In this document: one piece after another, positions 39,787-63,097 of the stretch
Numbering within the stretch: position 1 is the first letter of the stretch
How the letters are laid out: each line of letters opens with the position of its first letter
Source: an uncultured Solirubrobacterales bacterium
GTDB taxonomy: Bacteria; Actinomycetota; Thermoleophilia; Solirubrobacterales; Solirubrobacteraceae
Length of the DNA stretch: 64,000 nucleotides
Reading direction: 5' to 3'
Assembly (NCBI GenBank): GCA_963770885.1
Contig: CAVYRI010000002.1
Coordinates: 29,265 to 93,264 of the forward strand
The notes under the pieces: model-generated
Database searches by the model: none
Told to the model about the DNA's origin: nothing
What the model saw: the letters and a program-made list of their open reading frames with translations, nothing else
Made by a program: the position numbers and the translations under genes

Positions 39787-39811
39787 CGGCCTGCGGTAGC
39801 GTGCGGACGCG

Positions 39812-41465
<1,654 letters not shown>

Positions 41466-45219: not shown

Positions 45220-45222
45220 GTC

Positions 45223-46518
45223 ATGCCCCATCGCTATCCGTGCCTACTCGCATCGCCACCGGCCCGGCCCGGCCGGCTGTGGCTGACCGGAGCACGGCTG
45301 TTCGATGGCACCGGCGGCCAGGTGCACGAGGGCGTCGCCGTGCTGGTCAACGACGGAGTGATCGAACGGGTGGGGGAGGCCGGGGAGCCGGCGCCCGAAG
45401 GGGCTTATGTCGTGGAGCTCGATGGGCGGACCCTGATGCCGGGGCTGATCAACGCCCACGTCCACGTGCAGGGCCACCGGCCGGCGCCCGGGCACGGCGC
45501 CGAGCCGCTGTTGGCGGGCACCAGCGCGCACTTCCTGCAGGCGAGCCTGCGCGACTGCCTGCGGATGGGCGTGACGACGATCCGCAACGTCGGCTCGCAG
45601 GAGCGCCAGCCCCAGGAGGTCCGCCAGGCGATGCGCTACGGCGCCTTCCGCGGGCCGCGGCTGCTCACCTGCGGGCTGATCATCTCCGCGACCGCCCCCG
45701 GCGGGCGGTTCTACGGCGCGATGTACCGCGAGGCGGACGGCCCCGAGGAGATCCGCAAAGCCGTCCGCGAGCAACTTCGCGACGGCGCCGACTTCATCAA
45801 GGTGATGACCTGCGGCGCGCGGTCAAACGAGCTCGAGGACCCCGACCCGCTGCAGCTGACCGACGCTGAGCTGTCGGCGCTCGTCGGTGAGGCACACCGG
45901 ATGGGGGTGCGGGTGGCCGCCCATGTCGAGGGGCTCGACGGCACCGAGGCCGCGATCGAGCACGGGATGGACACGATCGAGCACGGGATGTACCTCTGCC
46001 AGCGTCCCGAGCTGCTCGAGCGGATGGCCGCCCACGGCCAGGTCCTGGTGCCGACCCTGAGCGGCTACTACTGGATGGCGGGCTTGGGCGATGCGATCGA
46101 CCCCGCCGGCGCGACGGTCGCGCCCGAGATGCTCGACAGCATCGTCGCACTCGCGCACTACAACCTCGAGCAGGGCAGCGCCTCGCTGCGGGCGGCACGG
46201 GACGCCGGCGTCCCGATCGCGCTCGGCTCAGACCGCGACGGCGTGTCGGGCGACGACACCGCCCTGGAGCTGGTGCGGATGGTCCATCACGGCCTCAGCG
46301 CACGTGAGGCGCTGCATGCGGCAACCGGCGCGGCGGCCCGCGCGATCGGCCTCGGCGAGTACATCGGCGTCGTGGCGCCCGGCCGGTTGGCCGACCTGGT
46401 GATCATCGACGGCGACCCGGTGGCCGAACCGTCGCTGCTGCTGGACCGCGATCGGATCTGGCTCGTGCTGCAGCTAGGGGAGCCCGTGGCCGGCGCGGCT
46501 TATGAGGATCGCCTGTAG
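45223..46518 (+). CDS. metal-dependent amidohydrolase (Xaa-Pro dipeptidase/prolidase-like subgroup)
   Basis: PGLINAHVH, GADFIKVMTCG, AAHVEG, TIEHG, ALGSD, GRLADLVIIDGDP. Confidence 0.88.
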   Translation: MPHRYPCLLASPPARPGRLWLTGARLFDGTGGQVHEGVAVLVNDGVIERVGEAGEPAPEGAYVVELDGRTLMPGLINAHVHVQGHRPAPGHGAEPLLAGTSAHFLQASLRDCLRMGVTTIRNVGSQERQPQEVRQAMRYGAFRGPRLLTCGLIISATAPGGRFYGAMYREADGPEEIRKAVREQLRDGADFIKVMTCGARSNELEDPDPLQLTDAELSALVGEAHRMGVRVAAHVEGLDGTEAAIEHGMDTIEHGMYLCQRPELLERMAAHGQVLVPTLSGYYWMAGLGDAIDPAGATVAPEMLDSIVALAHYNLEQGSASLRAARDAGVPIALGSDRDGVSGDDTALELVRMVHHGLSAREALHAATGAAARAIGLGEYIGVVAPGRLADLVIIDGDPVAEPSLLLDRDRIWLVLQLGEPVAGAAYEDRL

Positions 46519-47379
46519 CCTGGCCGCCTCGCGCTGGGGCGCGCCGGTGAGCCGCTCCCAGGTCACGCGAAGACTCACGTAACCGGCCGCGAGCAGCGCC
46601 GCGTCGCGCTCCCGGTCGCGCTCGAACGAGCGCTTGGAGGAGTGAAACTCCCAGCCGTCGAGTTCGACGACCACCTTGGCGTCGGCGAACAGCGCGTCGA
46701 CCTCGTAGCCGATGACGCGCACGTTCATCTGCGGCGTCGGCAGGCCGTACTCGCGCGCGAACGCGAGAAAGCGGTCCTCGAACTCCGAGCGCGTCGGGCC
46801 GGTGGCGTGCTCGGCAAACGGCCTCAGCAGGCGCGTACCGCGGTGGTACGGATTGCGTGCGATCGCGTCCGCCAGATGGTTGACGCGAAGGCCGGCGTTC
46901 AGACGCGCCTCGTTGACGGCGCGGGCTCGGCGCGCCTGCGTCAGCCTCGGCGCGATGTCGAGGACTGTGCGGGCTGGGCTGGTGACCCGAATGCCCCTGT
47001 GGCGCCGGATGTCCTGGCTTTCGAGAGCAGGGTGGAGGTGGACCCGGATCCCGGACGGGCGGCGCCGCGCGGGGACGGTGACCTCGGGGATCTGCGGCCA
47101 GCGCTTCACGAACCCCCAGAGGGCGGCCGCCGAGAAGTAGCTGAGGGCCGCCTGGTCCCCGCAGGCCAGGACGGCCGCGGCGGCGCGGGCGATCGGTTCG
47201 GGGCGGGGATGGCCGACTGCGTAGACACCTGGGTAGACCCGGATCAGCCGCCCGAGCCGTATCCGCGTCGCGATCTCGCTACGCGTAAATCCGAGCTCGA
47301 TCAGCTGGGCGTAGCTGACATGGCCGTACTGACGGGCTGCGAGGCGAGCCAGCAGGACATCTCTTGGAACCGAATGCAC
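46474..47379 (-). CDS. AbiEi-like N-terminal domain + DUF559 (Vsr-like endonuclease) protein
   Basis: LAARQYGHVSYAQL..LG, YPGVYAVGH, VTSPARTVLD, TRSEFE, EVDALF..AKVVVELDGWEFH, RDRERD, LRVTWE; start uncertain. Confidence 0.85.
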   Translation of the reverse strand: MHSVPRDVLLARLAARQYGHVSYAQLIELGFTRSEIATRIRLGRLIRVYPGVYAVGHPRPEPIARAAAAVLACGDQAALSYFSAAALWGFVKRWPQIPEVTVPARRRPSGIRVHLHPALESQDIRRHRGIRVTSPARTVLDIAPRLTQARRARAVNEARLNAGLRVNHLADAIARNPYHRGTRLLRPFAEHATGPTRSEFEDRFLAFAREYGLPTPQMNVRVIGYEVDALFADAKVVVELDGWEFHSSKRSFERDRERDAALLAAGYVSLRVTWERLTGAPQREAARLQAILISRAGHGLP

Positions 47380-47404
47380 GCTATACGTGCAGAGCGTTCC
47401 AAGA
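47362..47404. other. 43-nt inverted repeat (possible terminator or operator) between two minus-strand genes
   Basis: TCTTGGAAC-cgaa-TGCACG-ctata-CGTGCA-gagc-GTTCCAAGA directly after the stop at 47405. Confidence 0.6.
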
Positions 47405-48310
47405 CTACGTTTCCGCCCCCCTTGAAAGCCGCAACCGGACCCCCGCGGCGTCCTCATAGAGCTGCATGACGCTCATCTCGCCGGCCGAGTCACCGTAAAC
47501 CTCGCGCACCCGCACGTGGATCTGCTCGACGAGTGCCGCCAACTCCACCGACACCCCCGCGTCGCGCGCCAGTTCCACGGCCAATCCCAGGTCCTTGGTC
47601 ACCAGTGACATGAAGAACCCCTCGTCGTAGTCCCCGTCATCGAGAACCATCCGCACATCGCGCTCGAGGAACACCGAGTTGGCCGGGGAGGAAACCAGCG
47701 CCTCGTGGAGCTTGTCCAGCGACACGCCGGCCTTGACCCCCACGGTCAGGGCCTCGGCGGTCGCGACCGCCTGCACGAACCACATCAGGTTGAGCAGCAG
47801 CTTGGTCGTGTAGCCGCTGCCCTGCTCGCCGACGTGCATGATCCGCTGCGGATTGCCGATCGCCTCCAGCACCGGCCGGGCGCGCTCAAAAGCGCGATCG
47901 GATCCCCCGACATAGATCGCCAGCATCCCCGCCTCGGCGCCGATCGTCTGACCGGCCACCGGAGCGTCGACGAGTTCGATCCCACGCTGCGCGGCCAAAG
48001 CGCAGGCGCGGCGGCCGACCTCGAGCGAACTGGTGCTCATCTCGATCGCCAGCGAGCCCGGAGCCAACACCCCAAGCGCCTCCCTGAGAACCGCGTCAAC
48101 CTGCACCGGCCCCGGGAGGCTGGTGACCAACACGTCCGCCCCGTCGAGGCAGTCGGCGATCGAGGAAGCTCCGCGCGCACCGTGCGACGCGGCTCGCGCA
48201 ACGGCCTGCGCAACCACGTCAAACGCAGACACCGAGAATCCCGCCTCGCACACGTGCCGGCACATGTGCGACCCCATCCGCCCGAGCCCGATGAACGCGA
48301 CCCGCGTCAT
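47405..48310 (-). CDS. NAD(P)-dependent beta-hydroxyacid dehydrogenase (3-hydroxyisobutyrate dehydrogenase family)
   Basis: VAFIGLGRMG, VTSLP, EMSTS, VDAPVAG, catalytic TKLLLNL. Confidence 0.9.
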   Translation of the reverse strand: MTRVAFIGLGRMGSHMCRHVCEAGFSVSAFDVVAQAVARAASHGARGASSIADCLDGADVLVTSLPGPVQVDAVLREALGVLAPGSLAIEMSTSSLEVGRRACALAAQRGIELVDAPVAGQTIGAEAGMLAIYVGGSDRAFERARPVLEAIGNPQRIMHVGEQGSGYTTKLLLNLMWFVQAVATAEALTVGVKAGVSLDKLHEALVSSPANSVFLERDVRMVLDDGDYDEGFFMSLVTKDLGLAVELARDAGVSVELAALVEQIHVRVREVYGDSAGEMSVMQLYEDAAGVRLRLSRGAET

Positions 48311-49416
48311 GAGACCGAGTACCTAGACACCGCGTCCTCGTCCAACACGACACCGAGGCCAGGCTCTGAGGGGACCGCGAGCATCCCGTCGCCGTCAACG
48401 CGCACCGGCGCGGCGAGCATGAAGTCACGGCGCTCCGGCGTCCATCCGGGCGGGTCATATGGGTACTCGATGAATGGGCCACCGCCAACGCCGCAGCAGA
48501 CCTGGAGGTTGGCGAGCATCCCGATCCCGTTGGTCCACGTGTGAGGCGTGAACCAGCGATTGCGACGCAGAGCGAGGTCGGCGAGCGTGCGCGCGCCCGA
48601 GATGCCGAGCGCCAGCACGACATCGGGCTGGACTACGTCTAGCGCCTCCTGCTCGAGCGCGACGCGCAGCTCGTCAAACCCACGCGCCATCTCGCCGCCC
48701 GCGATCCGCACGCCCGACACCGAGCGCAGCATCCGCATCCCGGCCAGATCCGCGCCCGCCAGCGGCTCCTCGACCCACAGGACGCCGTACTCGTCGAGCC
48801 GTTCGATCACCCGGCGAGCGTCGGCAACACCGAGTCCAGGGGCGATGTCACCCGCCATCCGCCACCACTGGTTGAGGTCGACCATGATCTCGAGCGCATC
48901 GTCGACGGCCTCACGGATCGCGGCCACGACCGCGATCCCCTCTGCGATCCGGTCACGGGCGATCCGCACCTTGACGGCGCCGAACCCCTCCTCGACGAGC
49001 GCCCGCGCGTCGTCGCGCCGGACGTCCGCCGCTCGCAGCTCGCCCCACGACGCGTAGGCCGGCACCCGATCCAGGGCGCCGCCGAGCAGCGATGCGACCG
49101 AGACTCCGTGCGCGCGTCCGAACAGGTCCCAGAGCGCGGCCTCCACCGGCCAGTAGCGCCCGGCGTGAAAGGAGATCGTCTCGAGCGTCCTGGCATGGGC
49201 CGACAGCGCCAGCGCGTCGCGCCCGATGAACAGATGCTCGAACTCCCCAAAGCCCGTCATCGTGTCCCCCGAGCCGACCCCGGTCACCCCCTCATCGGTC
49301 TCGACGCGGACGATCGACGCTTCAAAGACACGGCGCGGATCGGGATCCCAGGCCGCGAAGAACGGCGGGTCGAGATCGAGGCGCAACCGCTGCACTCCGA
49401 TCGCGGTGATCCTCAC
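48307..49416 (-). CDS. mandelate racemase/muconate lactonizing (enolase superfamily) enzyme
   Basis: EAALWDL, GFGAVKVR, metal ligands VDLN / WVEEP / AGGE, QPDV, TPH. Confidence 0.9.
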   Translation of the reverse strand: MRITAIGVQRLRLDLDPPFFAAWDPDPRRVFEASIVRVETDEGVTGVGSGDTMTGFGEFEHLFIGRDALALSAHARTLETISFHAGRYWPVEAALWDLFGRAHGVSVASLLGGALDRVPAYASWGELRAADVRRDDARALVEEGFGAVKVRIARDRIAEGIAVVAAIREAVDDALEIMVDLNQWWRMAGDIAPGLGVADARRVIERLDEYGVLWVEEPLAGADLAGMRMLRSVSGVRIAGGEMARGFDELRVALEQEALDVVQPDVVLALGISGARTLADLALRRNRWFTPHTWTNGIGMLANLQVCCGVGGGPFIEYPYDPPGWTPERRDFMLAAPVRVDGDGMLAVPSEPGLGVVLDEDAVSRYSVS

Positions 49417-49950
49417 TCACTCGCCGCCGTAGAAGGGATTGCGCACCGTGTCGCGGCGTTCCACCAGGGCCAAGGCGGCGTCCATGTCGCGGCCGAGCAC
49501 GGCCGTCCGGATCCCCTTCAGGGTCGCGGCGCGGCTCGAGATCCGGACCTTGGTCTCATCGGTCGCGCCAGGGTCGATGTAGATCGCGACGAACACGAGC
49601 ACGTCTCCGCTGCACGGGATCAGCTCCTCCGCGACCGCGTCGAGCACGCCCTGCCCGATCCCCAGCTGGCCCGCCCCCCAGGTGATCGTCTGGTGTTGCT
49701 CCTCGAGCGCGGTCGCCTTGTTGATCATGATCGTCGGCGGCCAGACGGGCTCGTAGTCGTGCTTGGTCGCGCCGACGACGACCAGGATCGGGGCGTGACC
49801 CGGCGCGGGGGAGGTGAAGGTGCCCAGCAACGAGGCGGCGGTCGCGCTGCCCCGCTCGGCGAGGACGACGTTGACATGCGCGCCGTCGGGGTCGACGCCG
49901 CTCCACCCCTCGCCGATCAGACCGTCGAAGTCAGCCGGGAAGCGGCTCAT
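49417..49950 (-). CDS. formaldehyde-activating enzyme (Fae) family homologue
   Basis: IGEGWSG...GAHVNVVL.ERG, PPTIMINKAT, TWGAGQLGI.QGVLDAV, VFVAIYIDP align by eye with Fae (IGEALVG..VAHIDLI, PNTILFNKVT, MFGPAQ.AV); 177 aa. Confidence 0.72.
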   Translation of the reverse strand: MSRFPADFDGLIGEGWSGVDPDGAHVNVVLAERGSATAASLLGTFTSPAPGHAPILVVVGATKHDYEPVWPPTIMINKATALEEQHQTITWGAGQLGIGQGVLDAVAEELIPCSGDVLVFVAIYIDPGATDETKVRISSRAATLKGIRTAVLGRDMDAALALVERRDTVRNPFYGGE

Positions 49951-51137
49951 GCGGCGCCCCCGGCCGCGGCGCCCGCGAGTTCTGAGTCGACGATCACGAC
50001 CGAACGGTCGCCGTCGCCCCGACACATTCGGCCGAACGCGTCCTGCACCCCGTCGAGCGTGATCAGGTCGGAGACCACACCACCCAGGTCCAGCCGGCCC
50101 GACCGCACCAGCTCGACCAGCCCGGGGAGGCTCTGCGCCGGATCAGACGAGCCGTAGTAACTGCCGACGATCGCCTTCTCGGACGAAAACTGAATCGCGG
50201 GCAGCGACACCTCGGCGCCGACCGGCGAGACGCCGACGACGACCGCGGTCCCACCGGGCGCGAGCGTGTCCCACGCCATCCTGATCGTCGCTGGCGATCC
50301 GACCACCTCGAACGCGTGGTCGACCCCGCCGCCGGCAGACGCCCGCACCTGGGCAACGGCATCGTCGTCCCGCGCATCGACCGCGTGGGTTGCGCCGCGG
50401 CGCAGCGCGTGGTCGAGCTTTGGAGCGGCACGATCGACCGCAATGATCGTCGCCGCGCCGCCCAGGCGCGCGGCAGCGATCACCTGCAGGCCGACGCCGC
50501 CGCAGCCGATCACGCAGACGCGCTCGCCGATCGCGACCCGCGCCGCGTGCGTGACCGCACCAAACCCGGTCACGACTCCGCAGCCGAGCAGTGCCGCCTG
50601 CCACAGCGGAATGTCGCGTGGGATCGCGATCACGCCGGCGCGGGCGACGACCGCGTGCTCCGCGAAGCAGGCGACGGTCAGGCCGTGCTGGAGCACCGTG
50701 CCGTCGGCTCCGCGCAGCCGTGAAGTGCCGTCGGGCATCGTGCCGGCGAGCGAGTTGCGCGCCGCCGTCTCGCACAGCGTCCGGCGTCCGCTGCGGCAGG
50801 CGCCGCACGCGCCGCACGAGGCCACGAACGAGAAAACGACGTGATCTCCAACCGCGAGCCCGGTGACGCCGTCACCGAGGGCTTCGACAACGCCGGCGCC
50901 CTCGTGGCCGAGCACGATCGGCCAGCGCCCGGGTCCGAGCAGCCCGTCGGCGAGGTGGAGATCGGAGTGGCAGACGCCGGCGGCGGCGATCCGGACGAGC
51001 ACCTCGTCGCGGCGCGGCGGCTCGAGCAGCACACGCTCGCAGACGACCGGCCGTCCGGGCTCGCGCAGCACTGCGGCCCGCATCTCGATCGCGGCGCGCG
51101 TACTGCGCCTGAGCTCGGCCAGCGAGGTCTCTGTCAT
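49947..51137 (-). CDS. zinc-dependent alcohol dehydrogenase (class III/formaldehyde dehydrogenase-like MDR)
   Basis: GVCHSD, LGHEGAG, CGACGACRSGRRTLC, LLGCGVVTG, GCGGVG; alternative start ATG 51083. Confidence 0.92.
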   Translation of the reverse strand: MTETSLAELRRSTRAAIEMRAAVLREPGRPVVCERVLLEPPRRDEVLVRIAAAGVCHSDLHLADGLLGPGRWPIVLGHEGAGVVEALGDGVTGLAVGDHVVFSFVASCGACGACRSGRRTLCETAARNSLAGTMPDGTSRLRGADGTVLQHGLTVACFAEHAVVARAGVIAIPRDIPLWQAALLGCGVVTGFGAVTHAARVAIGERVCVIGCGGVGLQVIAAARLGGAATIIAVDRAAPKLDHALRRGATHAVDARDDDAVAQVRASAGGGVDHAFEVVGSPATIRMAWDTLAPGGTAVVVGVSPVGAEVSLPAIQFSSEKAIVGSYYGSSDPAQSLPGLVELVRSGRLDLGGVVSDLITLDGVQDAFGRMCRGDGDRSVVIVDSELAGAAAGGAA

Positions 51138-51144
51138 CTGAATT

Positions 51145-53238
51145 TCAGCTCTGTTCGGAGCGGGCGGCAGGGACCTCGGCCTCGCCGCCGTTGATCGCCT
51201 GCAACCGTCTCAGTTCCTCGAGCGGGATGTGACAGCGGATGCCATGTCCGGTCTCCTCCTCGCGCAACTCGGGCTCGGTCGTCTCGCAGATCGCGCCGAT
51301 CTTGCGCGGGCAGCGGGTGTGAAATGGGCAACCGGCCGGCGGGTCGGCCGAGCTCGGGATCTCGCCCTCGAGCCGGATCCGGAGCCGGTCGAGATCGTCG
51401 AGCGTCGGCACCGCGGACAGCAACGCCTCGGTGTAGGGGTGGTGTGGGCTGTCGAACACCTTGTCGGCCGGCCCCACCTCCATCACCTTGCCGAGGTAGA
51501 GGACGACGATCCGGTCAGAGAGATAGCGGACGACGCCGAGGTCGTGGCTGATGAACAGGTAGGACACGTCCTCGCGGTGCTGGAGGTCGGTGAGCAGGTT
51601 GAGGATCGCCGCCTGGACCGAAACGTCCAGGGCCGAGGTCGGCTCGTCGCAGACCACGATCCGCGGGTCGCCCGCGAATGCGCGGGCGATCGCGACCCGC
51701 TGCTTGAGGCCGCCCGATAGCTGCACCGGCTTCATCGCCAGATGACGCTCGGACAGTCGCACCTCGGAGATCAGCTTCTGCAAGCGCCTGTCGACCTCGT
51801 CGCCTCTGTAGCCGCCGAGCTTTGACAGCGCGCGCGACAGCAGCCGCCTGACCGAGTGACGGCGGTTGAGCGCCGAGTCGGGATTCTGGAACACGATCTG
51901 CAGCGCCTTCTTCTGCTCGCGCGAGCGCTTCTGAGCCATGCCGGGCAGCGGCTTGCCCTCGAGGGCGATCGTCGCGCCCTCGTCGGGCTCGGTCAGCCCG
52001 AGCAGCACGCGGGCCATCGTCGTCTTGCCGCTCCCCGACTCGCCGACCAGCCCCAGCGTCTCGCCGCTTCGCAGTTCGAGGTCGACGCCGGCCAGGCCGC
52101 GAATCGTCTGACCGCCGATGCGGAACGTCTTGGAGACCGCCGTCGCGGAGATCAGCTGCTCGCCGTTGGACTTGGCCCGCGCGGCCCGCTCGGGCTCGGC
52201 CTTGACGACCCGCGGCAGCGTCTGCGCCCGCTCGTGGAAGTGGCAGCGCGAGCGGCGGCCGGGTCCGGCGTCATAGGGCGGCGGCGACTCGTCGCGGCAG
52301 CGCTGCTCGACCAGCCCGCAGCGGTCGGCGAAGATGCAGCCCTGCTCGAGGGCGCCGGGGGTCGGGAGGAAGCCCGGGATCGTGTCGAGCGTCCCGTGGG
52401 CCTTGAGCGTGTCGCGCCGGGGGATACAGCGCAGCAGCCCGACCGTGTACGGGTGGCGCGGGTCGTGGAAGACCTCGCGGGCGGGGCCCTCCTCGATCAT
52501 CTCGCCGGCGTACAGGACCCCGACGCGGTCGCACATCTTCGCGATCACCCCGAGGTTGTGGCTGATGAACATCAGCGAGGTGCCGAACTCGTCGCGCAGC
52601 GCCGAGATCAGATCGAGCACCTCCGCTTCGACGGTCGCGTCGAGAGCGGTCGTCGGCTCATCGAGGATCAGCAGCGCCGGCTCGGACGCGAGCGCCATCG
52701 CGATCACGACGCGCTGGAGCATCCCGCCTGACAGCTGGTGCGGGTAGCGGTTCATCACCCCGCCAGGGTCGGAGATCCGCACCTTCTCGAGCATCTCGCG
52801 GCTACGATCGAGCGCCTTGGCGCGGTCGTCGCCGGCGATCTCGAACACCTCGGCAACCTGGCGCCCGACCCGGAGCGTCGGGTTCAGGGCCCGGCCCGGC
52901 TCCTGGTAGACCATCGAGACGGTGTTCTGGCGGAGCCTGCGCAGATCGCCCTGGCCCATCGCGAGCACGTCGCGGCCGTCGATCGAGATCCCGCCCTCCG
53001 AGACCGTGCCGTTGCGGGCGAGATAGCGGACGACGGCGAGCGCGATCGTCGACTTGCCGCACCCCGACTCGCCCACCAGCCCGTAGGACTCGCCGCGCCC
53101 GACTTTGAACGAGACGTCGCGGACGACCAACAGCGGGTGGCCGCGGACGCGGTAGGTGACGTTGATGTGATCCACCGAGAGCGCATCCGGCGCCGCCGTG
53201 GTCTGGCCCCCGGCAGGGGAGTCGGCGACCGTGCTCAT
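51145..53238 (-). CDS. fused double ATP-binding subunit of peptide/opine/nickel ABC importer (DppD-DppF)
   Basis: GESGCGKST / LSGGMLQR / DEPTT and GESGSGKTT / LSGGLKQR / DEPTS, two oligopeptide ABC C-terminal CxF..RC domains. Confidence 0.92.
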   Translation of the reverse strand: MSTVADSPAGGQTTAAPDALSVDHINVTYRVRGHPLLVVRDVSFKVGRGESYGLVGESGCGKSTIALAVVRYLARNGTVSEGGISIDGRDVLAMGQGDLRRLRQNTVSMVYQEPGRALNPTLRVGRQVAEVFEIAGDDRAKALDRSREMLEKVRISDPGGVMNRYPHQLSGGMLQRVVIAMALASEPALLILDEPTTALDATVEAEVLDLISALRDEFGTSLMFISHNLGVIAKMCDRVGVLYAGEMIEEGPAREVFHDPRHPYTVGLLRCIPRRDTLKAHGTLDTIPGFLPTPGALEQGCIFADRCGLVEQRCRDESPPPYDAGPGRRSRCHFHERAQTLPRVVKAEPERAARAKSNGEQLISATAVSKTFRIGGQTIRGLAGVDLELRSGETLGLVGESGSGKTTMARVLLGLTEPDEGATIALEGKPLPGMAQKRSREQKKALQIVFQNPDSALNRRHSVRRLLSRALSKLGGYRGDEVDRRLQKLISEVRLSERHLAMKPVQLSGGLKQRVAIARAFAGDPRIVVCDEPTSALDVSVQAAILNLLTDLQHREDVSYLFISHDLGVVRYLSDRIVVLYLGKVMEVGPADKVFDSPHHPYTEALLSAVPTLDDLDRLRIRLEGEIPSSADPPAGCPFHTRCPRKIGAICETTEPELREEETGHGIRCHIPLEELRRLQAINGGEAEVPAARSEQS

Positions 53239-54119
53239 CGCTCGAGCACTCCCTGGATCGCGTCTGAGATCAGCGACACCGAGACGACGAGGGTTGCGAT
53301 CGCGAGCGCGTCGAACAGGACCTCCCACCAGTATCCGGCCGGGACGACGCTGTAGTTGGAGGCGATGTCCAACCCCCAGTCGGGCGATGGTGGCTGCACG
53401 CCGAGGCCGAGGAAGGTCAAGGTCAAGACCGTGAAGATCGCGTACGCGAGTCGAACGGTGAACTCGACCAGGATCGGTGCGAATACGTTCGGGAGGATCT
53501 CGACGAACATGATGTAGAGGCTGCCCTCGCCACGCAGGCGCGCCGCAGAGACGTAGTCGAGCTCGCGCTCGAGCAGCACCGCCGCCCGGACGGTACGCGC
53601 GATCAACGGCGTGAACACGAGGCCGATCACGCCGATGATCACCAGGTTCGAGCGCCCCAGGGTCGAGAGCGCGATCACTCCGGTGACGACCAGCGGCAGC
53701 GCCAGGAAGGCCTCGACGAACCGGCTCAGGAAGTCGTCGACGAACCCGCGGTAGTAGCCCATCACGAGGCCGAGCGCGGTCCCGAGCACGGTCCCGAGCA
53801 GGGTCGCGAGTGGCGCGATGATGAGGATGTCGCGCGCGCCCACGATCACGCGCGAGAACATGTCGCGGCCGAGCTGGTCGGTCCCGAACAGATGCGCGCT
53901 CGAGGGCGCCTTGTTGATCCCCTCGAGGTTCTGCGCGAATGGGCTGTGCGGTGCGATCGCCGAGCCGAAGATCGCGCAGATGATCCAGATCAACAGGATC
54001 ACGGCGCCGACCAGGAACGTCTTGGAGTGCAGCAGTTCGCCCAGCAGCTCACGGCGGACCTCGCTGCGGCCCGCGCGGAGCGCGCCTATCGACTCGACCG
54101 GGACGTCGGCGATGCTCAT
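53235..54119 (-). CDS. peptide/nickel ABC permease (DppC-like)
   Basis: HLFGTDQLGRDMFSR, YVSAARLRGE, EILPN, LTFLGLGVQPP.PDWG. Confidence 0.92.
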   Translation of the reverse strand: MSIADVPVESIGALRAGRSEVRRELLGELLHSKTFLVGAVILLIWIICAIFGSAIAPHSPFAQNLEGINKAPSSAHLFGTDQLGRDMFSRVIVGARDILIIAPLATLLGTVLGTALGLVMGYYRGFVDDFLSRFVEAFLALPLVVTGVIALSTLGRSNLVIIGVIGLVFTPLIARTVRAAVLLERELDYVSAARLRGEGSLYIMFVEILPNVFAPILVEFTVRLAYAIFTVLTLTFLGLGVQPPSPDWGLDIASNYSVVPAGYWWEVLFDALAIATLVVSVSLISDAIQGVLER

Positions 54120-55057
54120 TCGGCCGTTCGCAACCGGATCCGCGGGTTCAGCAGCGAGAAGCCGATGTCGGCCACCAGCGTCACAACCATGTACACGATC
54201 CCGATCGTCAGCACGCACGCCTCGAGCATCGGGATGTCGTGCTGGTTTGCGGCGTTGTACGTGAGCATCCCGATGCCGTTGTAACGAAACAGCGTCTCGA
54301 CGACGACCAGGCCGCCGATCAGGTAGCCCGTCTGGGTCGCGATCACGGTGATCGTCGGCAGCAGCGAGTTGCGCAGCACGTGGCGACGGATCACGACCCC
54401 GCGCGGCAGGCCCTTCAGGGTCGCCGTCCGCGCGTAGTCTGACTCGAGCGCCTCGACCGTTCCAGCACGGGCCATACGGGCGATGTACCCGAAGAGGACC
54501 AATACGAGCGGGATCACCGGCAGGATCAAGTACTTCAGCTGGGTGAAGAAGCCCGACCCCGCCGGAGCGGTGGCCGTCACAGGCAACCACCCGAGCGCGA
54601 TCGAGAACACGACGAGCAGCACGATCCCCGAGACGAACTCAGGCACCGTCAGGGCCGACTGGCCGACGATGCTGATCGTCCGATCCAGCGGCTTGCCGAA
54701 GTTGAGCGCCGAGACGATGCCGCCGATCAGCCCCAGCGGCACGACGATCACGAACGCGAACACCGCCAGCTTCAGCGAACGGCCCAGCGCGCTGGTCAGG
54801 ATCGGCCCGATCGGCGCCTGGTACTGGGTCGAGGTGCCGGGGAAGTGGGTGATCCAGTTCCAGTACTGCGTCAACAGCGGCTTGTCGACGCCAAGTGTGT
54901 GATCGAGCGCGCGGACCGCGCTGGGCGCGGCGAGCGGCCCGAGCACCGAGCGCCCCGGATCGCTCGGTAGGACCTGGCCGAGGACGAACACGATCACGCT
55001 CAGCAGCCACAGCGTTACCAGCGCCAGGCCGAGCCGCTTGAGGATGAAGCCCGTCAT
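54116..55057 (-). CDS. peptide/nickel ABC permease (DppB-like)
   Basis: LKRLGLAL, YARTATLKGL, HVLRNSLLP, VVVETLF.YNGIG, DIPMLE, LNPRIR. Confidence 0.92.
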   Translation of the reverse strand: MTGFILKRLGLALVTLWLLSVIVFVLGQVLPSDPGRSVLGPLAAPSAVRALDHTLGVDKPLLTQYWNWITHFPGTSTQYQAPIGPILTSALGRSLKLAVFAFVIVVPLGLIGGIVSALNFGKPLDRTISIVGQSALTVPEFVSGIVLLVVFSIALGWLPVTATAPAGSGFFTQLKYLILPVIPLVLVLFGYIARMARAGTVEALESDYARTATLKGLPRGVVIRRHVLRNSLLPTITVIATQTGYLIGGLVVVETLFRYNGIGMLTYNAANQHDIPMLEACVLTIGIVYMVVTLVADIGFSLLNPRIRLRTAE

Positions 55058-55073
55058 CGGCCGCCCGCCGGCA

Positions 55074-56768
55074 TCAGCTCTTGTAGGCCGTGTTGAGGTA
55101 TAGCTGCGCGATCGAGGTCGGGTTCAGCCCGCCCACATTCGGCGTCGAGGCGGTCAGGCCGTCGATCCAGTACGGGATCACGATCGGCGTCTCGTTGAGC
55201 AGCAGCGTCTCGATCTTGCCCGCGATCTGCTTCTGCGTCGTCAGATCGAGCGCGGCGACGTACTGCTTGACGAGCGCGTCGTACTGGCTGTTCTTGAAGT
55301 GAGCCGCGTTCCACGGCCCCGTCGAGGTCAGCGGTGCCTCGAGATAGACGTTCGGCACGCCACGGTCCCCGTAGTCGACAAGGCTTGCCGTGCCGTCCAG
55401 CCAGTCGGAGTTGCCGTACGTCGCCTTGCCGTAGTAGAGCGTCTGGCTCTCGATCTTGAGATCGAAGTTGATCCCCGCCTTGGCCGCGTCCTCCTTGATC
55501 ACCTGTGCCAACTGGGGGATCTCCTGGTAGACCTCGGTGAACAGCGGCGCGCTGATTCCGGATGAATGGCCCGCCGCCGCCAGCAGCTGCTTGGACTTGG
55601 CGATGTCCTGCTCGCGCTGCGGAAGCGAGAGATCCGAGGACGGGAACCGGGGCCCGAACGGCGTGTCGTTGGCGACCGTGCCGTAGCCGCCGAGCAGCGC
55701 GTTGACCATGCCCTTGCGGTCCAGCGAGTAGGCGACCGCCTGACGGACGCGGGCGTCGGTGAACGGCGCCTGGTCGTTGCGCATCGACAGCTCACGATGG
55801 TTGGCCGACTTGAGCTGGATGATCTTGTAGGAGGGGTTGTGAAGGATCGCCGTCGCGCCCGCCGGCACGAACTGCGCGATCACGTCGACCGAGCTTCCCT
55901 GCAGCGCGAGGATCATCGGCGGCTGGCTGGCGTAGAACTTGAACGACGTGCTCGCCAGCAGCGGCTTGGGCCCCCAGTAGTTGGGGTTGGGCACGAACGA
56001 CGCGCCGACGTTGGTCGTGTAGCTCGAGAGCTTGAAGGCGCCGGTGCCGACGAACGTCTTCTGCCACTTGGAGAAGTCGGTTCCGTTGGGAACGATGATC
56101 GCGTTGTAGTTGTCTGACGAGACCAGGTACGGGAAGTTCCCGTTCGGCGACTCGAGATGGAACTCGACCGTCGTCGAATTGACCTTCTTGACGCCGTCGG
56201 GAGTGAGCACGCTGGTGAACGTCGACAGCGCGTTGGAGGCGTTGTTCTTGTCCGATAGCTGCTTGAACGTGTAGACGACGTCGTCGGCGGTCATCGGCGC
56301 CCCGGTGCTGAACTTCACGCCGGGGCGGAGCTTGAAGGTCCACACGCTGCCGTCACCGTTGTGGCTCCAGCTGAGCGCCAGCATAGGCTGCAACGCGAGC
56401 TTCAGGTTGCTGTCGAAGATCAGGAACTCGCCGGTCTGGTTGAGCATGCACAGACCGCCCGCGTCGGCCACCGTGAGCGGGTTGACGGCGGCCGATGGGG
56501 TCACCGATGCGACCTGGAGCGTGCCGCCGGACTTCGGCGCGGCGCCGCTGGTCGACGACGCGGCGCCCGCCGACGAGGACGAGGAAGAACTGCCGCACGC
56601 GGCCAGGATCGTCCCCAGCAGCACCGTGGACATGCCAATCGTGCTGCCCCGGCGAAGGAACTGACGGCGATCGATCCGCCCCGCGAGGAGCTCGTCGATG
56701 TAGTGGTTTTCGAGTTCGCTGCGTCCGGCGCGGATCTCATCGAGCCTGCGCGTCTGATCCTTATCCAT
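55074..56768 (-). CDS. family 5 ABC substrate-binding lipoprotein with twin-arginine-like signal
   Basis: IDRRQFLRRG...LAAC lipobox, Ser-rich linker, PMLALSW, WTFKLRPGVKF, VGTGAFKL, PFTDARVRQA; ATG 56768 after AAAGGAAG. Confidence 0.9.
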   Translation of the reverse strand: MDKDQTRRLDEIRAGRSELENHYIDELLAGRIDRRQFLRRGSTIGMSTVLLGTILAACGSSSSSSSAGAASSTSGAAPKSGGTLQVASVTPSAAVNPLTVADAGGLCMLNQTGEFLIFDSNLKLALQPMLALSWSHNGDGSVWTFKLRPGVKFSTGAPMTADDVVYTFKQLSDKNNASNALSTFTSVLTPDGVKKVNSTTVEFHLESPNGNFPYLVSSDNYNAIIVPNGTDFSKWQKTFVGTGAFKLSSYTTNVGASFVPNPNYWGPKPLLASTSFKFYASQPPMILALQGSSVDVIAQFVPAGATAILHNPSYKIIQLKSANHRELSMRNDQAPFTDARVRQAVAYSLDRKGMVNALLGGYGTVANDTPFGPRFPSSDLSLPQREQDIAKSKQLLAAAGHSSGISAPLFTEVYQEIPQLAQVIKEDAAKAGINFDLKIESQTLYYGKATYGNSDWLDGTASLVDYGDRGVPNVYLEAPLTSTGPWNAAHFKNSQYDALVKQYVAALDLTTQKQIAGKIETLLLNETPIVIPYWIDGLTASTPNVGGLNPTSIAQLYLNTAYKS

Positions 56769-57663
56769 GACTTGACTTCCTTTCGGTGGCAATCGATCCT
56801 GCGCCGGCCGCTGCCGCGGAATCGACGCTTACATCACTAATTCGATCAAATTTGGTGGGGGACGGGTCTTTGGCGGGGGGCAGGTCAGCCAGGGGGGCGA
56901 GTGATCGCGCTGCGCTGATTAGGTCAGGGAGCATTTCAGCCTTTCGCTCGGACGTCATCCGCCCGCTGGGGATGCACAACGTGAGCGCGGCGGCGACGCG
57001 GCCCACCGGCCCGACCCGCACCGCGACGCAATGGAGTCCGAGCGCGGTCTCGTCGATGTTCTCGCCGTAGCCACGTTCGCGCGTCCGCTCGAGGATCAGG
57101 TGGAGCTCGTCCAGCCCGCCGAGCCGCCGCCCGGTCGGGGTCACCAGCTCCCTGCCGGCGAACATCGCGTTGACCCGTTCGCGCGGCAGGTCGGCGAGCA
57201 GGACGCGGCCCGCCGCGGATGCGAACGCCGGCAACCGGCTCCCGACCGGGCTCACGAGCCGCACCGGGTGGGTCGTCTCGACCTTGGCCAAGAACAGGCT
57301 GTCGAGGCCGTCGAGCACCACCAGGCAGGTGGTCTCGTTGTGGCGCGCGACAAGCCGTCCGGCGACCGAGTGAAAGCCGTTGGTCAGCGCCGCCGCCGGC
57401 GCAGCTCGCGCGAGCCGAGCCGTGCGGGGGCCGAGCGCGAGCGTCGACGTGCCGGCGTCGCGCGCGATCCAGCCGCGCTCGAGCATCATTGAGCAGACCC
57501 GGTGCAAGGTGCTCTTGGGGGCGCCGGTCTCCCGTGAGAGCTCGGCCAGGGTCAGCGTGCCGCAGCCGTCAAGCGCGTCGAGCACGTCAAGCACCGTCGC
57601 GACGCCGGCTGAGCGAGCGCGCGGCCTTCGTGGCGCGTGGGGGCGCACCGCTGAACCTGCCAA
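56761..57663 (-). CDS. IclR family transcriptional regulator
   Basis: LDVLDAL..TLAELSRETGAPKSTLHR, ETTCLVVL, VGSRLPAFASAAGRVLLA, DETALGLHCVAV; both ends uncertain. Confidence 0.85.
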   Translation of the reverse strand: MAGSAVRPHAPRRPRARSAGVATVLDVLDALDGCGTLTLAELSRETGAPKSTLHRVCSMMLERGWIARDAGTSTLALGPRTARLARAAPAAALTNGFHSVAGRLVARHNETTCLVVLDGLDSLFLAKVETTHPVRLVSPVGSRLPAFASAAGRVLLADLPRERVNAMFAGRELVTPTGRRLGGLDELHLILERTRERGYGENIDETALGLHCVAVRVGPVGRVAAALTLCIPSGRMTSERKAEMLPDLISAARSLAPLADLPPAKDPSPTKFDRISDVSVDSAAAAGAGSIATERKSSHG

Positions 57664-57765: not shown

Positions 57766-59004
57766 CTAACGGTCAGGGCTCGGGCTGGCCGCGCGCGCCG
57801 CGGCAGCCCCCGCCAGCACCTCGGCGACTACCCGGGTCGCGGCGATGATCTCGTCGATGTCGGCGCCCTCCTGGGGGGTGTGGGACTCGCCGCCGTGGAG
57901 CGGGACGAAGACCAGCAGCGTCGCGATCTGCGCCGCCAGGTGCTGGGCGTCGTGACCGGAGCCCGACCAGGTCTTGATCGCGCCGATGCCGAGCGACCGT
58001 GCGGCGTCGACGGCGGCATCGGCGAGCCCTGGGTGCAGCGCCACCGGATCCCCGGTGCGGACCAGCTCGACGTCGACGGTCACCCCCCGGCGTTGCGCGA
58101 TCGCAGCCGCATCACCGCGGATCTCGGCCTCGAGTCGATCCAGCGACGGTCCCGAGATCGCTCGCGCGTCGATCGTCAGCCTGGCGGTACCCGGAATCAC
58201 GCTCACCGCCCCAGGCGTGATTTCGATCTCGCCTACGGTCGCAACCGTCTCTGGGTCCTCGGCGCTGGCGGCGGCCTCGACCGCGAGCACGAGCTCGGCG
58301 GCGGCGGCCAGGGCGTCATGGCGCTCCTCCATCGCCACCTCGCCGGCGTGGCCGGACCTGCCGGCGATCAGCCCCTGCAGCCGACGGGGCGCGGCGACCT
58401 TGGTGACCACGCCGAGCTCGCGCAGTGACCGCCGCTGGGCGACGTGGATCTCGGCGTGCGCGATCACGCGCCCGAGAGCCGGCTGGACGCGCGGCAGCTC
58501 GCCGACGGCCTGCAGATAGGTGACCCGCGCCTGCGCGGCGCTCACCCCGGCCGCGTCTCGGAAACGCTCGAGCTCACGCTCTGAGAGGGTGCCGACCAGC
58601 AGCCGCGAGCCAACGGTGCCGGCCGCGAAGCGCGGTGCCTCCTCGGCCGCGCAGACGAGCAGGCCCGCCCGGGCGCCAGCAGCGAGCCGTTCGCCGAGGT
58701 CATTGACGAGCTCGAGCCCGAGCACGGTCCCGAGCGCACCGTCGTAGCGGCCACCGTCGGGAACGGTGTCGACGTGTGAGCCGGCCGTGACGACCGGGCC
58801 GCTCCAGCCCGCGGGCAGCGCCCAGAGGTTCCCGAACGGGTCGATCCCGGGCTCCAGCCCGGCCTCGCGCGCCCAACCGGCGACGAGCAGCATCGCCTCC
58901 GCCTCGGCGGTCGAGAAGGCAGGGCGGTCGGCCCCGCCGGCAAGACCCCTGGCGATCTGCCACAGCTGCTCCAGGCGCGCGGCGATCCGCTCACGGTCAG
59001 GCAA
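57766..59004 (-). CDS. M20-family N-carbamoyl-L-amino acid amidohydrolase (allantoate amidohydrolase-like)
   Basis: DPFGNL, GSHVDTVPDGGRYDGALG, AAEE, GRSGHAG, DALAAAAE, PGAVSVIPG, SGSGHDAQ; TTG start overlapping upstream stop. Confidence 0.88.
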   Translation of the reverse strand: MPDRERIAARLEQLWQIARGLAGGADRPAFSTAEAEAMLLVAGWAREAGLEPGIDPFGNLWALPAGWSGPVVTAGSHVDTVPDGGRYDGALGTVLGLELVNDLGERLAAGARAGLLVCAAEEAPRFAAGTVGSRLLVGTLSERELERFRDAAGVSAAQARVTYLQAVGELPRVQPALGRVIAHAEIHVAQRRSLRELGVVTKVAAPRRLQGLIAGRSGHAGEVAMEERHDALAAAAELVLAVEAAASAEDPETVATVGEIEITPGAVSVIPGTARLTIDARAISGPSLDRLEAEIRGDAAAIAQRRGVTVDVELVRTGDPVALHPGLADAAVDAARSLGIGAIKTWSGSGHDAQHLAAQIATLLVFVPLHGGESHTPQEGADIDEIIAATRVVAEVLAGAAAARAASPSPDR

Positions 59005-60067
59005 GCGCGAACTCCGCCAACGGCTTGCCGAGCATCGCCTCGACCTCGGGGTAGACGCTCGGCTCCTTGACGCCGTCACCGAGCGGGACATTGGCCTTGG
59101 GCACGTGCAGGACGGCGACCTCGTCGCCCTCGCGGAGGTTGGCGATCGAGATGATCCTTCCGGTCTGCACCGACAGCGTCGCCAGGACGTCGGGGAAGGT
59201 GGCCAAGCGCTCGCCGCCCGACTCGGCGGTCAGGTACTCGTTGACGAATCCCAGCTCCAATTCATCGACGACGATCGTGCCGACGTCAAACGCGTTCTCG
59301 GTTCTCAGCTCGCGGCTGCGGACACGACCCTCCGCGATCACCGCGCCGCCGAGATGGTCGGCGGTCGTCTCGATCATCCGTCTCGGGCCGTCGGCCTCGA
59401 CGGCGAGGATCGCCTCGCCGAGCGCCAGCGCGAAGCTGATCGCGCCGACCGCCGCATGGCGGGCGACGAACGACGCCGGGAGCGGGTTGCGCGCGCACGA
59501 GATGAAGCCACCGGATTGCTCGGCGGCGGTGCGGAGCACGTTGGCGGTGTGGCGAACCGTGCCCCGGGTGACCACCTCGAGGTAGCGGTTCTGCGCCCGG
59601 TTGCCGCCTGCGACGGCCTGGACAGTCTGGTGGTCGTCATCGGCGGCGAGCCCAAACGAGCCCATCTTGCCGGTCGGGTGGGCGCGCCCGTCACCGGCGG
59701 CGTCGATCACCAGCGTGCCGAGCACCGCGGACGCGACCCAGCCGTTGCAGGTCGTCGAGGAACCGTTCTGGGCGGTGACGGTGCCGACGATCGGCGCGGG
59801 CACCGCCTCGATCAGCAACTGGAGCGCGCGGACATAGTCGCCCGGTCGCATCTCCCAGCCGACGGCGGCCGGCGCGCCGATCGCGCTCACCGTCGCGAGC
59901 ATCGCCTCGGGGTCGACCTCGCCCAGTGAGGCGAGCCGGGGCGTCCCGTACTGGACGGCGGTCGTGCCGACGAGCATTCCATGGTCGACCCAGCCGCCGC
60001 CACCGGCGGCGAGCACCGAGCCGCCCGCGACGGCTGCGTGGACGGCAGCCAGATCCAGGTCTCTCAC
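58997..60067 (-). CDS. DUF917 family protein (candidate thiohydantoin desulfhydrase)
   Basis: GGSVLAAGGGG, VSAIGAP, AQNG, VIDAAGDGRAHP..KMG, NEY, TFPDVL; 356 aa. Confidence 0.85.
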   Translation of the reverse strand: MRDLDLAAVHAAVAGGSVLAAGGGGWVDHGMLVGTTAVQYGTPRLASLGEVDPEAMLATVSAIGAPAAVGWEMRPGDYVRALQLLIEAVPAPIVGTVTAQNGSSTTCNGWVASAVLGTLVIDAAGDGRAHPTGKMGSFGLAADDDHQTVQAVAGGNRAQNRYLEVVTRGTVRHTANVLRTAAEQSGGFISCARNPLPASFVARHAAVGAISFALALGEAILAVEADGPRRMIETTADHLGGAVIAEGRVRSRELRTENAFDVGTIVVDELELGFVNEYLTAESGGERLATFPDVLATLSVQTGRIISIANLREGDEVAVLHVPKANVPLGDGVKEPSVYPEVEAMLGKPLAEFALA

Positions 60068-63088: not shown

Positions 63089-63097
63089 CCATAGCTC

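Follow-up and report, generated by a model that had tools for sequence, protein, structure and literature searches.

Canonical formaldehyde-activating enzyme (Fae), whose gene serves as a marker of methylotrophy, speeds up a spontaneous reaction. An amine adds to the carbon of the aldehyde with loss of water, and attack by a second nitrogen gives a five-membered ring. A function has been defined only for the Fae of bacterial group 1 and archaeal group 5; groups 2 to 4 are of unknown function, and regulatory, sensing, or tetrahydrofolate (THF)-linked roles have been suggested for them (PMC11748545, 2024). Our literature search found no characterized Fae-like protein from a nonmethylotroph and no paper on an operon combining genes for an alcohol dehydrogenase (ADH), a Fae-like protein, and an enolase-superfamily enzyme. 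Here, we describe such an operon from an uncultured bacterium (GenBank assembly GCA_963770885.1), which its best matches place in the Solirubrobacterales. The operon lies in a 64,000-nucleotide stretch of contig CAVYRI010000002.1 (positions 29,265 to 93,264), the whole of which we call the window and number from its first base. From sequence comparisons, the Fae-like protein encoded there probably does a different job from the Fae linked to tetrahydromethanopterin (H4MPT).

A Fae fold outside the Fae equivalog

The Fae-like protein matched the Fae family PF08714 with 84.7 bits (gathering score, 27) over profile positions 1 to 158 of 159. It matched the sequence of Methylorubrum extorquens Fae (1Y5Y) with an E value of 1.2e-13 and about 28% identity. 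An AlphaFold2 model, built from a 40-sequence alignment, had a pLDDT of 80.4 and a pTM of 0.80. When this model was compared with the PDB using Foldseek, 1Y60 and 1Y5Y were recovered with E values of 1.6e-11 to 2e-9 and TM scores of 0.67 to 0.75, and the next match had an E value of 0.02. By its predicted structure, then, the protein is a genuine Fae fold. The original prediction, made from the DNA sequence alone, had named a different fold as one of two findings that would count against it, and on this point it holds. The score against the Fae equivalog TIGR03126 was 68.3 bits, under the cut-off of 118.05, and a weak match (44 bits) was obtained with the Fae-Hps fusion model NF009833.

In place of the canonical AHxD motif, the protein reads GAHVNV. 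The histidine (His25), predicted earlier to be retained, is in place, and Asn27 makes the motif AHxN. The aspartate was present in three of three verified canonical H4MPT-linked sequences, and asparagine was found in nearly all members of the two divergent clades, A and B, described below. His25 was invariant in 18 diverse Fae-family members and aligns with His22 of 1Y60, while Gln95, which aligns with Gln88 of 1Y60, was kept in at least 90% of aligned family sequences. Trp91 aligns with Phe84 of M. extorquens Fae at a position where an aromatic residue is common, and the C-terminal arm motif NPF(Y/F) is retained in both divergent clades. We take His22, Asp24, Phe84, and Gln88 of the M. extorquens enzyme to be active-site or pterin-site residues; the roles of His22 and Gln88 were reportedly described in the 2005 structure paper of Acharya et al. 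On its score and its AHxN motif, the protein from the window is not a Fae equivalog.

A maximum-likelihood tree was calculated from 51 Fae-family sequences, fae2 and fae3 not being among them. The Fae-like protein fell into clade A (support, 100/99) together with proteins of the Gaiellales type, of another actinobacterial family, and of the cultured Bacillaceae Domibacillus mangrovi and Bacillus sp. F19. A copy in Peribacillus simplex, outside the tree, was indicated by BLAST. Group B, also of the AHxN type, was poorly resolved, and the canonical AHxD clade was nested inside it on a long branch.

H4MPT markers in the genome and its relatives

The genome that contains the window (5.77 Mb in 12 contigs, 92.8% complete) holds one Fae-family gene. 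No H4MPT gene was found inside the window, in line with what had been reported. Searches of the 92.8%-complete genome likewise gave no match to methenyl-H4MPT cyclohydrolase Mch (PF02289), formyltransferase Ftr (PF01913), or beta-RFAP synthase MptG (TIGR00144), and all three models did match their control genomes. A search with PF09176 (Mpt_N) was uninformative, since no control matched either. The second finding named in advance as counting against the prediction was an H4MPT pathway elsewhere in the genome, and no marker of one was detected.

We compared these results with an evenly drawn sample of 201 Thermoleophilia genomes, in which 23 had a Fae-family gene and 17 had Mch. Sixteen of the 17 sampled genomes with the divergent, low-scoring Fae type showed no Mch. 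The exception, G017, belongs to the same genus as the bacterium studied here and has two Fae genes. One is canonical (234 bits, AHxD) and lies about 7 kb from a split mch (G017:C4:414279-422264), while the divergent copy sits apart from mch in an ADH-Fae-enolase-HIBADH cassette. The sample also included 14 Mch-bearing genomes with no Fae match; some Thermoleophilia do carry H4MPT-type genes. Domain and fold make the window protein a member of the Fae family, but it does not pass as Fae on equivalog score, motif, or cofactor. We therefore regard it as a variant of Fae, with a function that is predicted only.

The operon and its conservation

The Fae-like gene lies in a minus-strand operon of nine genes (Table 1). 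Their families were assigned with Pfam and NCBIfam and, in order, are an IclR regulator, a substrate-binding protein (SBP), two permeases, a fused ATPase, a zinc-dependent ADH (Zn-ADH), the Fae-like protein, an enolase-superfamily enzyme, and a HIBADH-family dehydrogenase. Together with the reading of the junctions, this agrees with the mostly coupled gene run first described. Four-nucleotide ATGA overlaps join PermB to PermC, PermC to the ATPase, the ADH to the Fae-like gene, and the enolase gene to the HIBADH gene, and the GTG start of the enolase gene comes directly after the TGA stop of the Fae-like gene. The IclR and SBP genes overlap by 8 nucleotides, and the other gaps in the operon are 7 and 16 nucleotides. 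The starts of SBP (56768), PermC (54119), the ATPase (53238), and the Fae-like gene (49950) were refined from these junctions. The ATG at 49950 is our choice, the longest open reading frame (GTG) reaching 50025. The TTG start of the IclR gene is preceded by GGAGGAGG, and a gap of about 100 nucleotides, with a strong ribosome-binding site, separates this gene from the M20 gene upstream. A scan for consensus promoters and terminators gave nothing exceeding shuffled expectation. The G+C content is uniform at about 70%.

Table 1. Genes of the operon and its flanks, with window coordinates (scores in bits, match versus cut-off)
Feature	Coordinates	Strand	Domains or scores
IclR-family regulator, first operon gene	56761-57663	-	HTH_IclR + IclR_C
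Family-5 (Dpp/Opp/Nik-type) substrate-binding lipoprotein	55074-56768	-	SBP_bac_5, 260 bits
PermB, ABC permease of DppB/OppB type	54116-55057	-	BPD_transp_1 + BPD_transp_1_N
PermC, ABC permease of DppC/OppC type	53235-54119	-	OppC_N + BPD_transp_1
Fused two-domain ATPase of importer	51145-53238	-	Two ABC_tran + two oligo_HPY stretches
Class-III-like Zn-ADH	49947-51137 (alternative start 51083)	-	ADH_N + ADH_zinc_N
Fae-like protein, clade A, AHxN type, 177 aa	49417-49950	-	PF08714
Enolase superfamily, MR-subgroup-like	48307-49416	-	MR_MLE_C 181 bits + MR_MLE_N 30.9 bits
HIBADH-family beta-hydroxyacid dehydrogenase, last operon gene	47405-48310	-	NAD_binding_2 + NAD_binding_11
ErtD-like hydantoin-5-propionate amidohydrolase	61703-63109	-	411 vs 600
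Thiourocanate hydratase-like urocanase homolog	60064-61863	-	746 vs 930; exceeds hutU cut-off
Thiohydantoin desulfurase-like	58997-60067	-	427.5 vs 440
ErtE-like N-carbamyl-L-glutamate amidohydrolase	57766-59091	-	246 vs 520; exceeds hydantase subfamily cut-off
Xaa-Pro-dipeptidase-like amidohydrolase	45223-46518	+ (convergent)	Amidohydro_1; 224 vs 500

The importer is of the Dpp/Opp/Nik type, having a family-5 SBP, two BPD_transp_1 permeases, and an ATPase with an oligo_HPY tail. Its SBP carries a twin-arginine motif (DRRQFLRRG) and a lipobox (ILAAC). The closest NCBIfam and PDB relatives of this SBP are NikA-like and peptide binders, with all equivalogs far under their cut-offs. The fused type of ATPase is also present in Ensifer and Gaiellales-like loci.

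Using a pattern scan with one genome per species, we found at least 391 genomes that encode a relative, mostly from soil Thermoleophilia, and kept the best 80 loci. An ADH homolog was present at 68 of these, an enolase homolog at 67, a HIBADH homolog at 56, and homologs of the importer genes at 51 to 54. Most of the 80 related loci repeat the operon arrangement, which is not due to chance. Variation was also seen. At many loci, a divergent MFS gene and a LysR gene are inserted between the importer and the ADH gene, and a gene for a PuuC-like aldehyde dehydrogenase separates the enolase gene from the HIBADH gene. Some loci hold just LysR-Fae-HIBADH. The Gaiellaceae and another actinobacterial family have the order importer-ADH1-Fae-enolase-ADH2, and in one of these loci (L118), an ADH-Fae-enolase-ADH operon is closed by an amidohydrolase gene 52% identical to the one at 45223-46518 of the window. 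Apparent Fae-enolase and ADH-Fae fusions were read as read-through or frameshifted metagenome gene calls and were taken as support for adjacency only.

The pairing of the Fae-like gene with the enolase gene was examined in the sample of 201 genomes. Both were present in 17, an enolase ortholog alone in 1, a Fae-family gene alone in 6, and neither in 177. Where both occur, they are immediate neighbors in 15 of the 17 genomes, and the pairing covers at least five families. Fisher's exact test gave a P value of 9e-19 for the co-occurrence, which is overstated since the genomes are kin. The sole sampled genome with an enolase ortholog (G113:C1:208879-209970, 66% identity) and no detectable Fae-family gene is G113.

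In the Gaiellales-type cassettes, we observed that a homocysteine S-methyltransferase gene (PF02574) recurs nearby (L062:15084-16115, L118:14236-15264, and L119:354-1394). A CN_hydrolase gene adjoins it at two of these three loci.

Partner enzymes

The closest PDB relatives of the ADH are class III ADHs, that is, glutathione-dependent formaldehyde dehydrogenases (E value, 1e-66). Its GVCHSD and GHEG motifs align with their counterparts in human ADH5. Its scores, however, were under the cut-offs of every equivalog or subfamily model considered: 272.7 versus 543.95 for FrmA (TIGR02818), 277.9 versus 512.9 for MscR (TIGR03451), and 305.3 versus 440 bits for the NDMA-dependent ADH subfamily. Where human ADH5 binds glutathione through Asp55, Glu57, and Arg114, the aligned residues of the window ADH are Leu, Pro, and Ala.

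The genome was also searched for thiol systems. No MshC equivalog was found in it, the best match to TIGR03447 scoring 276.6 bits against a cut-off of 485; we take this match to be cysteinyl-tRNA synthetase, by inference only. No MscR equivalog was found in the genome. EgtD was not matched in it either, a weak negative, as no control genome passed the cut-off. A mycothiol- or glutathione-dependent system, as stated, was rejected on the lack of MshC and MscR equivalogs and of the glutathione-binding residues in the ADH. Host-made ergothioneine was set aside as a carrier on the weak EgtD evidence.

The enolase-superfamily member has KVR at residues 147 to 149, that is, KxR and not KxK at the end of strand 2. 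By motif assignment, D180, E216, and E242, along with D264 and H291, fall in DLN, EEP, GGE, QPD, and PH motifs that align with 3SJN, so the KxR, D/E/E, and His pattern first noted is borne out. Its best NCBIfam match was galactonate dehydratase, with 115 bits versus a cut-off of 311, and all 16 matches were under their cut-offs, including a weak full-length match to the cis-3-hydroxy-L-proline dehydratase family (56 bits versus 500). Its PDB relatives had E values of 1e-29 or weaker.

The HIBADH-family protein scored 180 versus 292 for HIBADH, 167 versus 341 for tartronate semialdehyde reductase, and 147 versus 350 for L-threonate dehydrogenase. Among PDB entries, it comes closest to 2-(hydroxymethyl)glutarate dehydrogenase (3CKY), and it is 51 to 54% identical to the products of HIBADH genes that adjoin Fae-like genes in Streptomyces and in other Thermoleophilia.

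Fae-like genes outside the Thermoleophilia

In every non-Thermoleophilia lineage examined, a Fae-like gene lies beside the gene for an NAD(P)-dependent enzyme with an aldehyde as its substrate or product. These neighbors span five families (Zn-ADH, HIBADH, AKR, Fe-ADH, and ALDH), and a transporter for zwitterionic or cationic solutes is usually close by. In Bacillaceae, genes for BCCT, a Zn-ADH (42% identical to the window ADH), and SSADH are divergent from Fae, IclR, and ABM genes, with a malic enzyme gene in Domibacillus alone. Streptomyces clavuligerus has a betaine-type ABC importer followed by Fae, whose gene overlaps the SBP gene by 4 nucleotides, HIBADH (52%), and ALDH. In Streptomyces sp. 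NBC_01562, Fae and HIBADH are divergent from IclR, ALDH, SDR, FAD oxidoreductase, and FGGY kinase genes. Ensifer adhaerens has AKR, Fae, SSADH, LysR, and a Dpp-type importer with a fused ATPase; Burkholderia and Caballeronia have Fae, AKR, SSADH, and MFS; and one actinomycete (G555) has an arginase-family gene, an SSF transporter, Fae, gabD, and gabT. The SSADHs of the Ensifer, Bacillus, Burkholderia, and G555 loci scored above the TIGR01780 cut-off, and the G555 aminotransferase was above that of the GabT equivalog.

Several Fae-like copies adjoin oxygenases able to create carbinolamines (ABM, HalD-like Fe/2OG, and luciferase-like). The HalD-like enzymes adjoin group-B Fae in two unrelated actinobacterial genomes (L100:7994-10396 and L101:9468-10298); the genes that follow at one of these two loci encode E1 alpha, E1 beta, and E2 of a 2-oxoacid dehydrogenase complex.

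In other actinobacteria, some group-B Fae copies adjoin 60 to 61% identical orthologs of the window enolase and of the cassette aldehyde dehydrogenase, and others adjoin HIBADH orthologs with 51 to 54% identity. Clades A and B thus appear to be interchangeable in gene context.

Genes flanking the operon

Immediately upstream of the IclR gene, and also on the minus strand, are four genes (57766-63109) with their best NCBIfam matches among the ergothioneine-utilization enzymes (Table 1); no clear ergothionase gene adjoins them. The original prediction had placed the operon in surrounding demethylation chemistry; it is this ergothioneine-type set that is directly adjacent. The importer could work with the ergothioneine-type genes, with the Fae cassette, or with both.

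On the other side, three convergent plus-strand genes (42689-46518) encode a HutF-like formimidoylglutamate deiminase, which is over one equivalog cut-off, a divergent aromatic-lyase-family protein, which matches histidine ammonia-lyase over residues 158 to 370 alone, and the amidohydrolase. The amidohydrolase may be an accessory part of the pathway, to judge from its ortholog in L118. Homologs of these flanking genes were found near the cassette at 42 (HutF-like) and 31 (lyase) of the 80 loci and recur in a Gaiellales-like genome. Between the HIBADH and amidohydrolase genes is a minus-strand AbiEi-antitoxin/DUF559/MTES_1575-like gene (46474-47457), seen in the same position at 11 of 80 loci. 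Farther away, a plus-strand reading frame (39800-40744) holds only the urocanase N-terminal and Rossmann parts (hutU positions 9 to 308 of 545). This frame, which adjoins an ornithine-cyclodeaminase-family gene (38680-39786), may represent a hutU that has been split or frameshifted.

Proposed role of the Fae-like protein

Two alternatives had been put forward for this gene, a THF- or thiol-linked formaldehyde activator and a Fae-fold enzyme put to another use in a new pathway for an imported hydroxy acid or conjugate. The second fits the comparative data better, because the protein is tied to one enolase ortholog group and to alcohol and aldehyde dehydrogenases across orders and phyla, and because some operons, such as the gabT-gabD cluster, lack a conceivable formaldehyde source. 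For the first, we found no positive support on the THF side, and the thiol side, as regards mycothiol and glutathione, is contradicted by the lack of MshC and MscR equivalogs and of glutathione-binding residues in the ADH. Hydroxymethyl release, mentioned earlier as an example of repurposing, is a possible chemistry among those conceivable, with no specific pointer to it.

The reading that we favor, although we would give it somewhat less than an even chance, is that the Fae-like protein would be a hydro-lyase acting on a pathway intermediate, on which it would form or cleave an adduct of aldehyde and nitrogen, rather than one that joins formaldehyde to H4MPT. This is the simplest transfer of Fae chemistry to the observed gene contexts. 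The chemistry of Fae would be kept, with water added or removed at the carbon between aldehyde and nitrogen (carbinolamine, iminium, and aminal interconversion). The enolase-family enzyme, with its single His base and KxR, would remove the alpha-proton of the acid and eliminate the beta-substituent. Its product would be an enamine or iminium if nitrogen is on C-alpha and otherwise an enol or aldehyde. The Fae-like enzyme would then accelerate the step in which this product is hydrated and its C-N bond cleaved (or its ring opened), and the ADH and HIBADH-type enzyme would oxidize or reduce hydroxyl and aldehyde groups on either side. There is a precedent for the release of a cyclic imine in the enolase superfamily, namely, cis-3-hydroxy-L-proline dehydratase. 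RidA, an enamine/imine deaminase that aids dehydratases, offers a functional analogy for the role of the Fae-like protein.

With a similarly guarded confidence, we suggest that the Fae-fold enzyme is a constant part of a conserved cassette that would break down an imported solute. This solute would be a hydroxy acid or peptide-like compound, probably one that contains nitrogen. The candidate substrates considered were C4 sugar acids (giving 4-hydroxy-2-oxobutanoate), pantothenate, carnitine or gamma-butyrobetaine, dimethylsulfoniopropionate or beta-alanine betaine, dipeptides containing hydroxyproline, fragments of folate, and formaldehyde adducts of the thiazolidine type. All of them account for some of the genes and none for the whole set, and we favor none of them.

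More doubtful is a wider reading, in which the Fae fold would have a second widespread activity as an iminium/carbinolamine hydro-lyase, an obligate partner of one enolase enzyme and elsewhere of semialdehyde dehydrogenases. Together, these enzymes would form an undescribed C-N-cleaving route for imported N-substituted hydroxy acids and betaine- or peptide-like compounds in soil Thermoleophilia and other bacteria.

Several points weigh against the hydro-lyase reading. Noncanonical Fae-like proteins are listed as being of unknown function (PMC11748545). Imine hydration and carbinolamine breakup are fast without a catalyst, so the need for one would be an argument by analogy. The window operon has no oxygenase, and clade B genes occur in heterogeneous contexts. 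The importer may be part of the neighboring ergothioneine-utilization-like set instead. Finally, the retained residues that we presume to contact the pterin, along with the NPF(Y/F) arm, could equally mean a pterin (THF) partner.

This last point leads to the first of the alternatives, a THF-dependent activator that would trap formaldehyde, arising from a step of the operon, such as retro-aldol hydroxymethyl loss, or from nearby demethylations, as 5,10-methylene-THF. We consider this unlikely. The alignment of His25, Gln95, and Trp91 with His22, Gln88, and Phe84 of Fae and the conserved arm motif of clades A and B would fit it, and the cofactor is no problem, as THF is universal. THF-linked one-carbon transfer is also among the roles suggested for Fae-like groups (PMC11748545). 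However, there is no plausible formaldehyde source in the gabT-gabD or Fae-AKR-SSADH-MFS operons, and no THF enzyme was found in any conserved cassette. The strict co-occurrence with one enolase ortholog group would be unexpected for a general formaldehyde trap. In addition, fae3 of M. alcaliphilum did not complement a fae mutant, though that test concerns H4MPT (PMC11748545).

A second alternative, less likely again, is a carrier-dependent aldehyde oxidation paralleling the Gfa/FlhA/FghA routes. The Fae-like protein would join formaldehyde or another aldehyde to a thiol or amine, the ADH would oxidize the adduct to a thioester or amide, and a hydrolase or amidohydrolase would free the acid and the carrier. 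The ATGA coupling of a class-III-like ADH gene to the Fae-like gene speaks for such a scheme, as do the glutathione-dependent formaldehyde dehydrogenases that are the nearest solved relatives of this ADH and the ADH-Fae adjacency at 68 of 80 loci and in Bacillaceae. So do the amidohydrolase that ends the L118 operon, with its 52% identical ortholog beside the window operon, and the ergothioneine-related genes and importer that adjoin. Against this, the ADH is under every equivalog cut-off and has no glutathione-binding residues, the genome yielded neither an equivalog of MshC or MscR nor a match to EgtD (with its weak control), and many Fae-like loci (LysR-Fae-HIBADH and Fae-AKR-SSADH) have no Zn-ADH. 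This scheme would also leave the enolase and HIBADH-family enzymes without a role.

We think it improbable that the protein is a noncatalytic aldehyde-binding sensor, a buffer, or a regulatory partner of the adjacent IclR or LysR regulators. It has been suggested that Fae-like proteins act in regulation or sensing (PMC11748545), and an IclR or LysR gene adjoins the Fae-like gene at many loci. The Fae-like gene, however, is translationally coupled between two enzyme genes and not to the regulator gene, His25 is invariant across the sampled family, and the co-occurrence is with an enzyme ortholog group and not with one regulator family. An ordinary H4MPT-dependent Fae, with its remaining pathway in the unassembled 7% of the genome, is scarcely credible, for although the genome is just 92.8% complete and G017 of the same genus has mch and a canonical Fae, three independent markers (Mch, Ftr, and MptG) are absent, the score is under the equivalog cut-off, the canonical Fae and not the divergent copy lies near mch in G017, and mch was not found in 16 of the 17 sampled genomes that have the divergent type.

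If the hydro-lyase reading is true, it would mean a second function for the Fae fold, a partner and a reaction type for an uncharacterized enolase-superfamily group, and a new catabolic pathway in a soil lineage that is abundant but poorly represented in culture. Genes of this kind are annotated as "formaldehyde-activating enzyme" or "tetrahydromethanopterin hydro-lyase." Since at least 391 species genomes carry the divergent type and 16 of 17 sampled genomes with it lack mch, these annotations mislead metabolic reconstructions. Carriers that allow direct testing are available in culture, among them Domibacillus mangrovi, Bacillus sp. F19, Streptomyces clavuligerus, Ensifer adhaerens, and Caballeronia.

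Comparison with known systems

The enolase-superfamily partner can be compared with the MR-subgroup dehydratases (GalD, TalrD/GalrD, and AraD) and cis-3-hydroxy-L-proline dehydratase. It shares with them the barrel, the D/E/E ligands, and the Asp-His dyad, and it scores best to galactonate, arabinonate, and talarate dehydratases. It differs in that its scores are far from the cut-offs (115 versus 311, 103 versus 650, and 56 versus 500) and in that the second Lys of KxK is Arg. We know of no characterized MR-subgroup member with a Fae-like partner. RidA resembles the Fae-like protein in its proposed role only, in that it speeds up the hydrolysis of a reactive imine or enamine from a dehydratase, and its fold is unrelated to Fae.

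In the Gfa/FlhA/FghA and MscR routes, as in the window operon, a small activating protein is encoded beside a class-III-type Zn-ADH. Unlike in those routes, the window ADH has no glutathione-binding residues and scores too low for either FrmA or MscR. The search for a mycothiol ligase gave none, and the operon has no thioesterase. The fold of Gfa also differs from that of Fae. In the Fae-Hps proteins of methanogenic archaea (NF009833), a Fae domain is likewise coupled to an enzyme that produces its aldehyde, but the partner in the window is an enolase-superfamily member and not hexulose-phosphate synthase, the two are not fused, and there is no H4MPT.

The methylotroph fae2, fae3, and fae1-2 genes (groups 2 to 4) are similar in being noncanonical and without an assigned function, and fae3 fails complementation (PMC11748545). 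The hosts of these genes, however, have H4MPT, whereas the divergent copies described here are mostly found without H4MPT and with fixed catabolic neighbors. Fae of M. extorquens AM1 (EC 4.2.1.147; 1Y5Y/1Y60) is alike over its full-length fold (TM score, 0.71 to 0.75), with about 28% identity, a similar size, an invariant His, conserved Gln and aromatic residues at aligned positions, and a PF08714 score above the gathering score. The window protein is set apart from it by a score under TIGR03126, by Asn in place of Asp, and by a separate clade with 100/99 support. Its host is without Mch, Ftr, and MptG, and its gene belongs to a catabolic operon and not to a one-carbon cluster.

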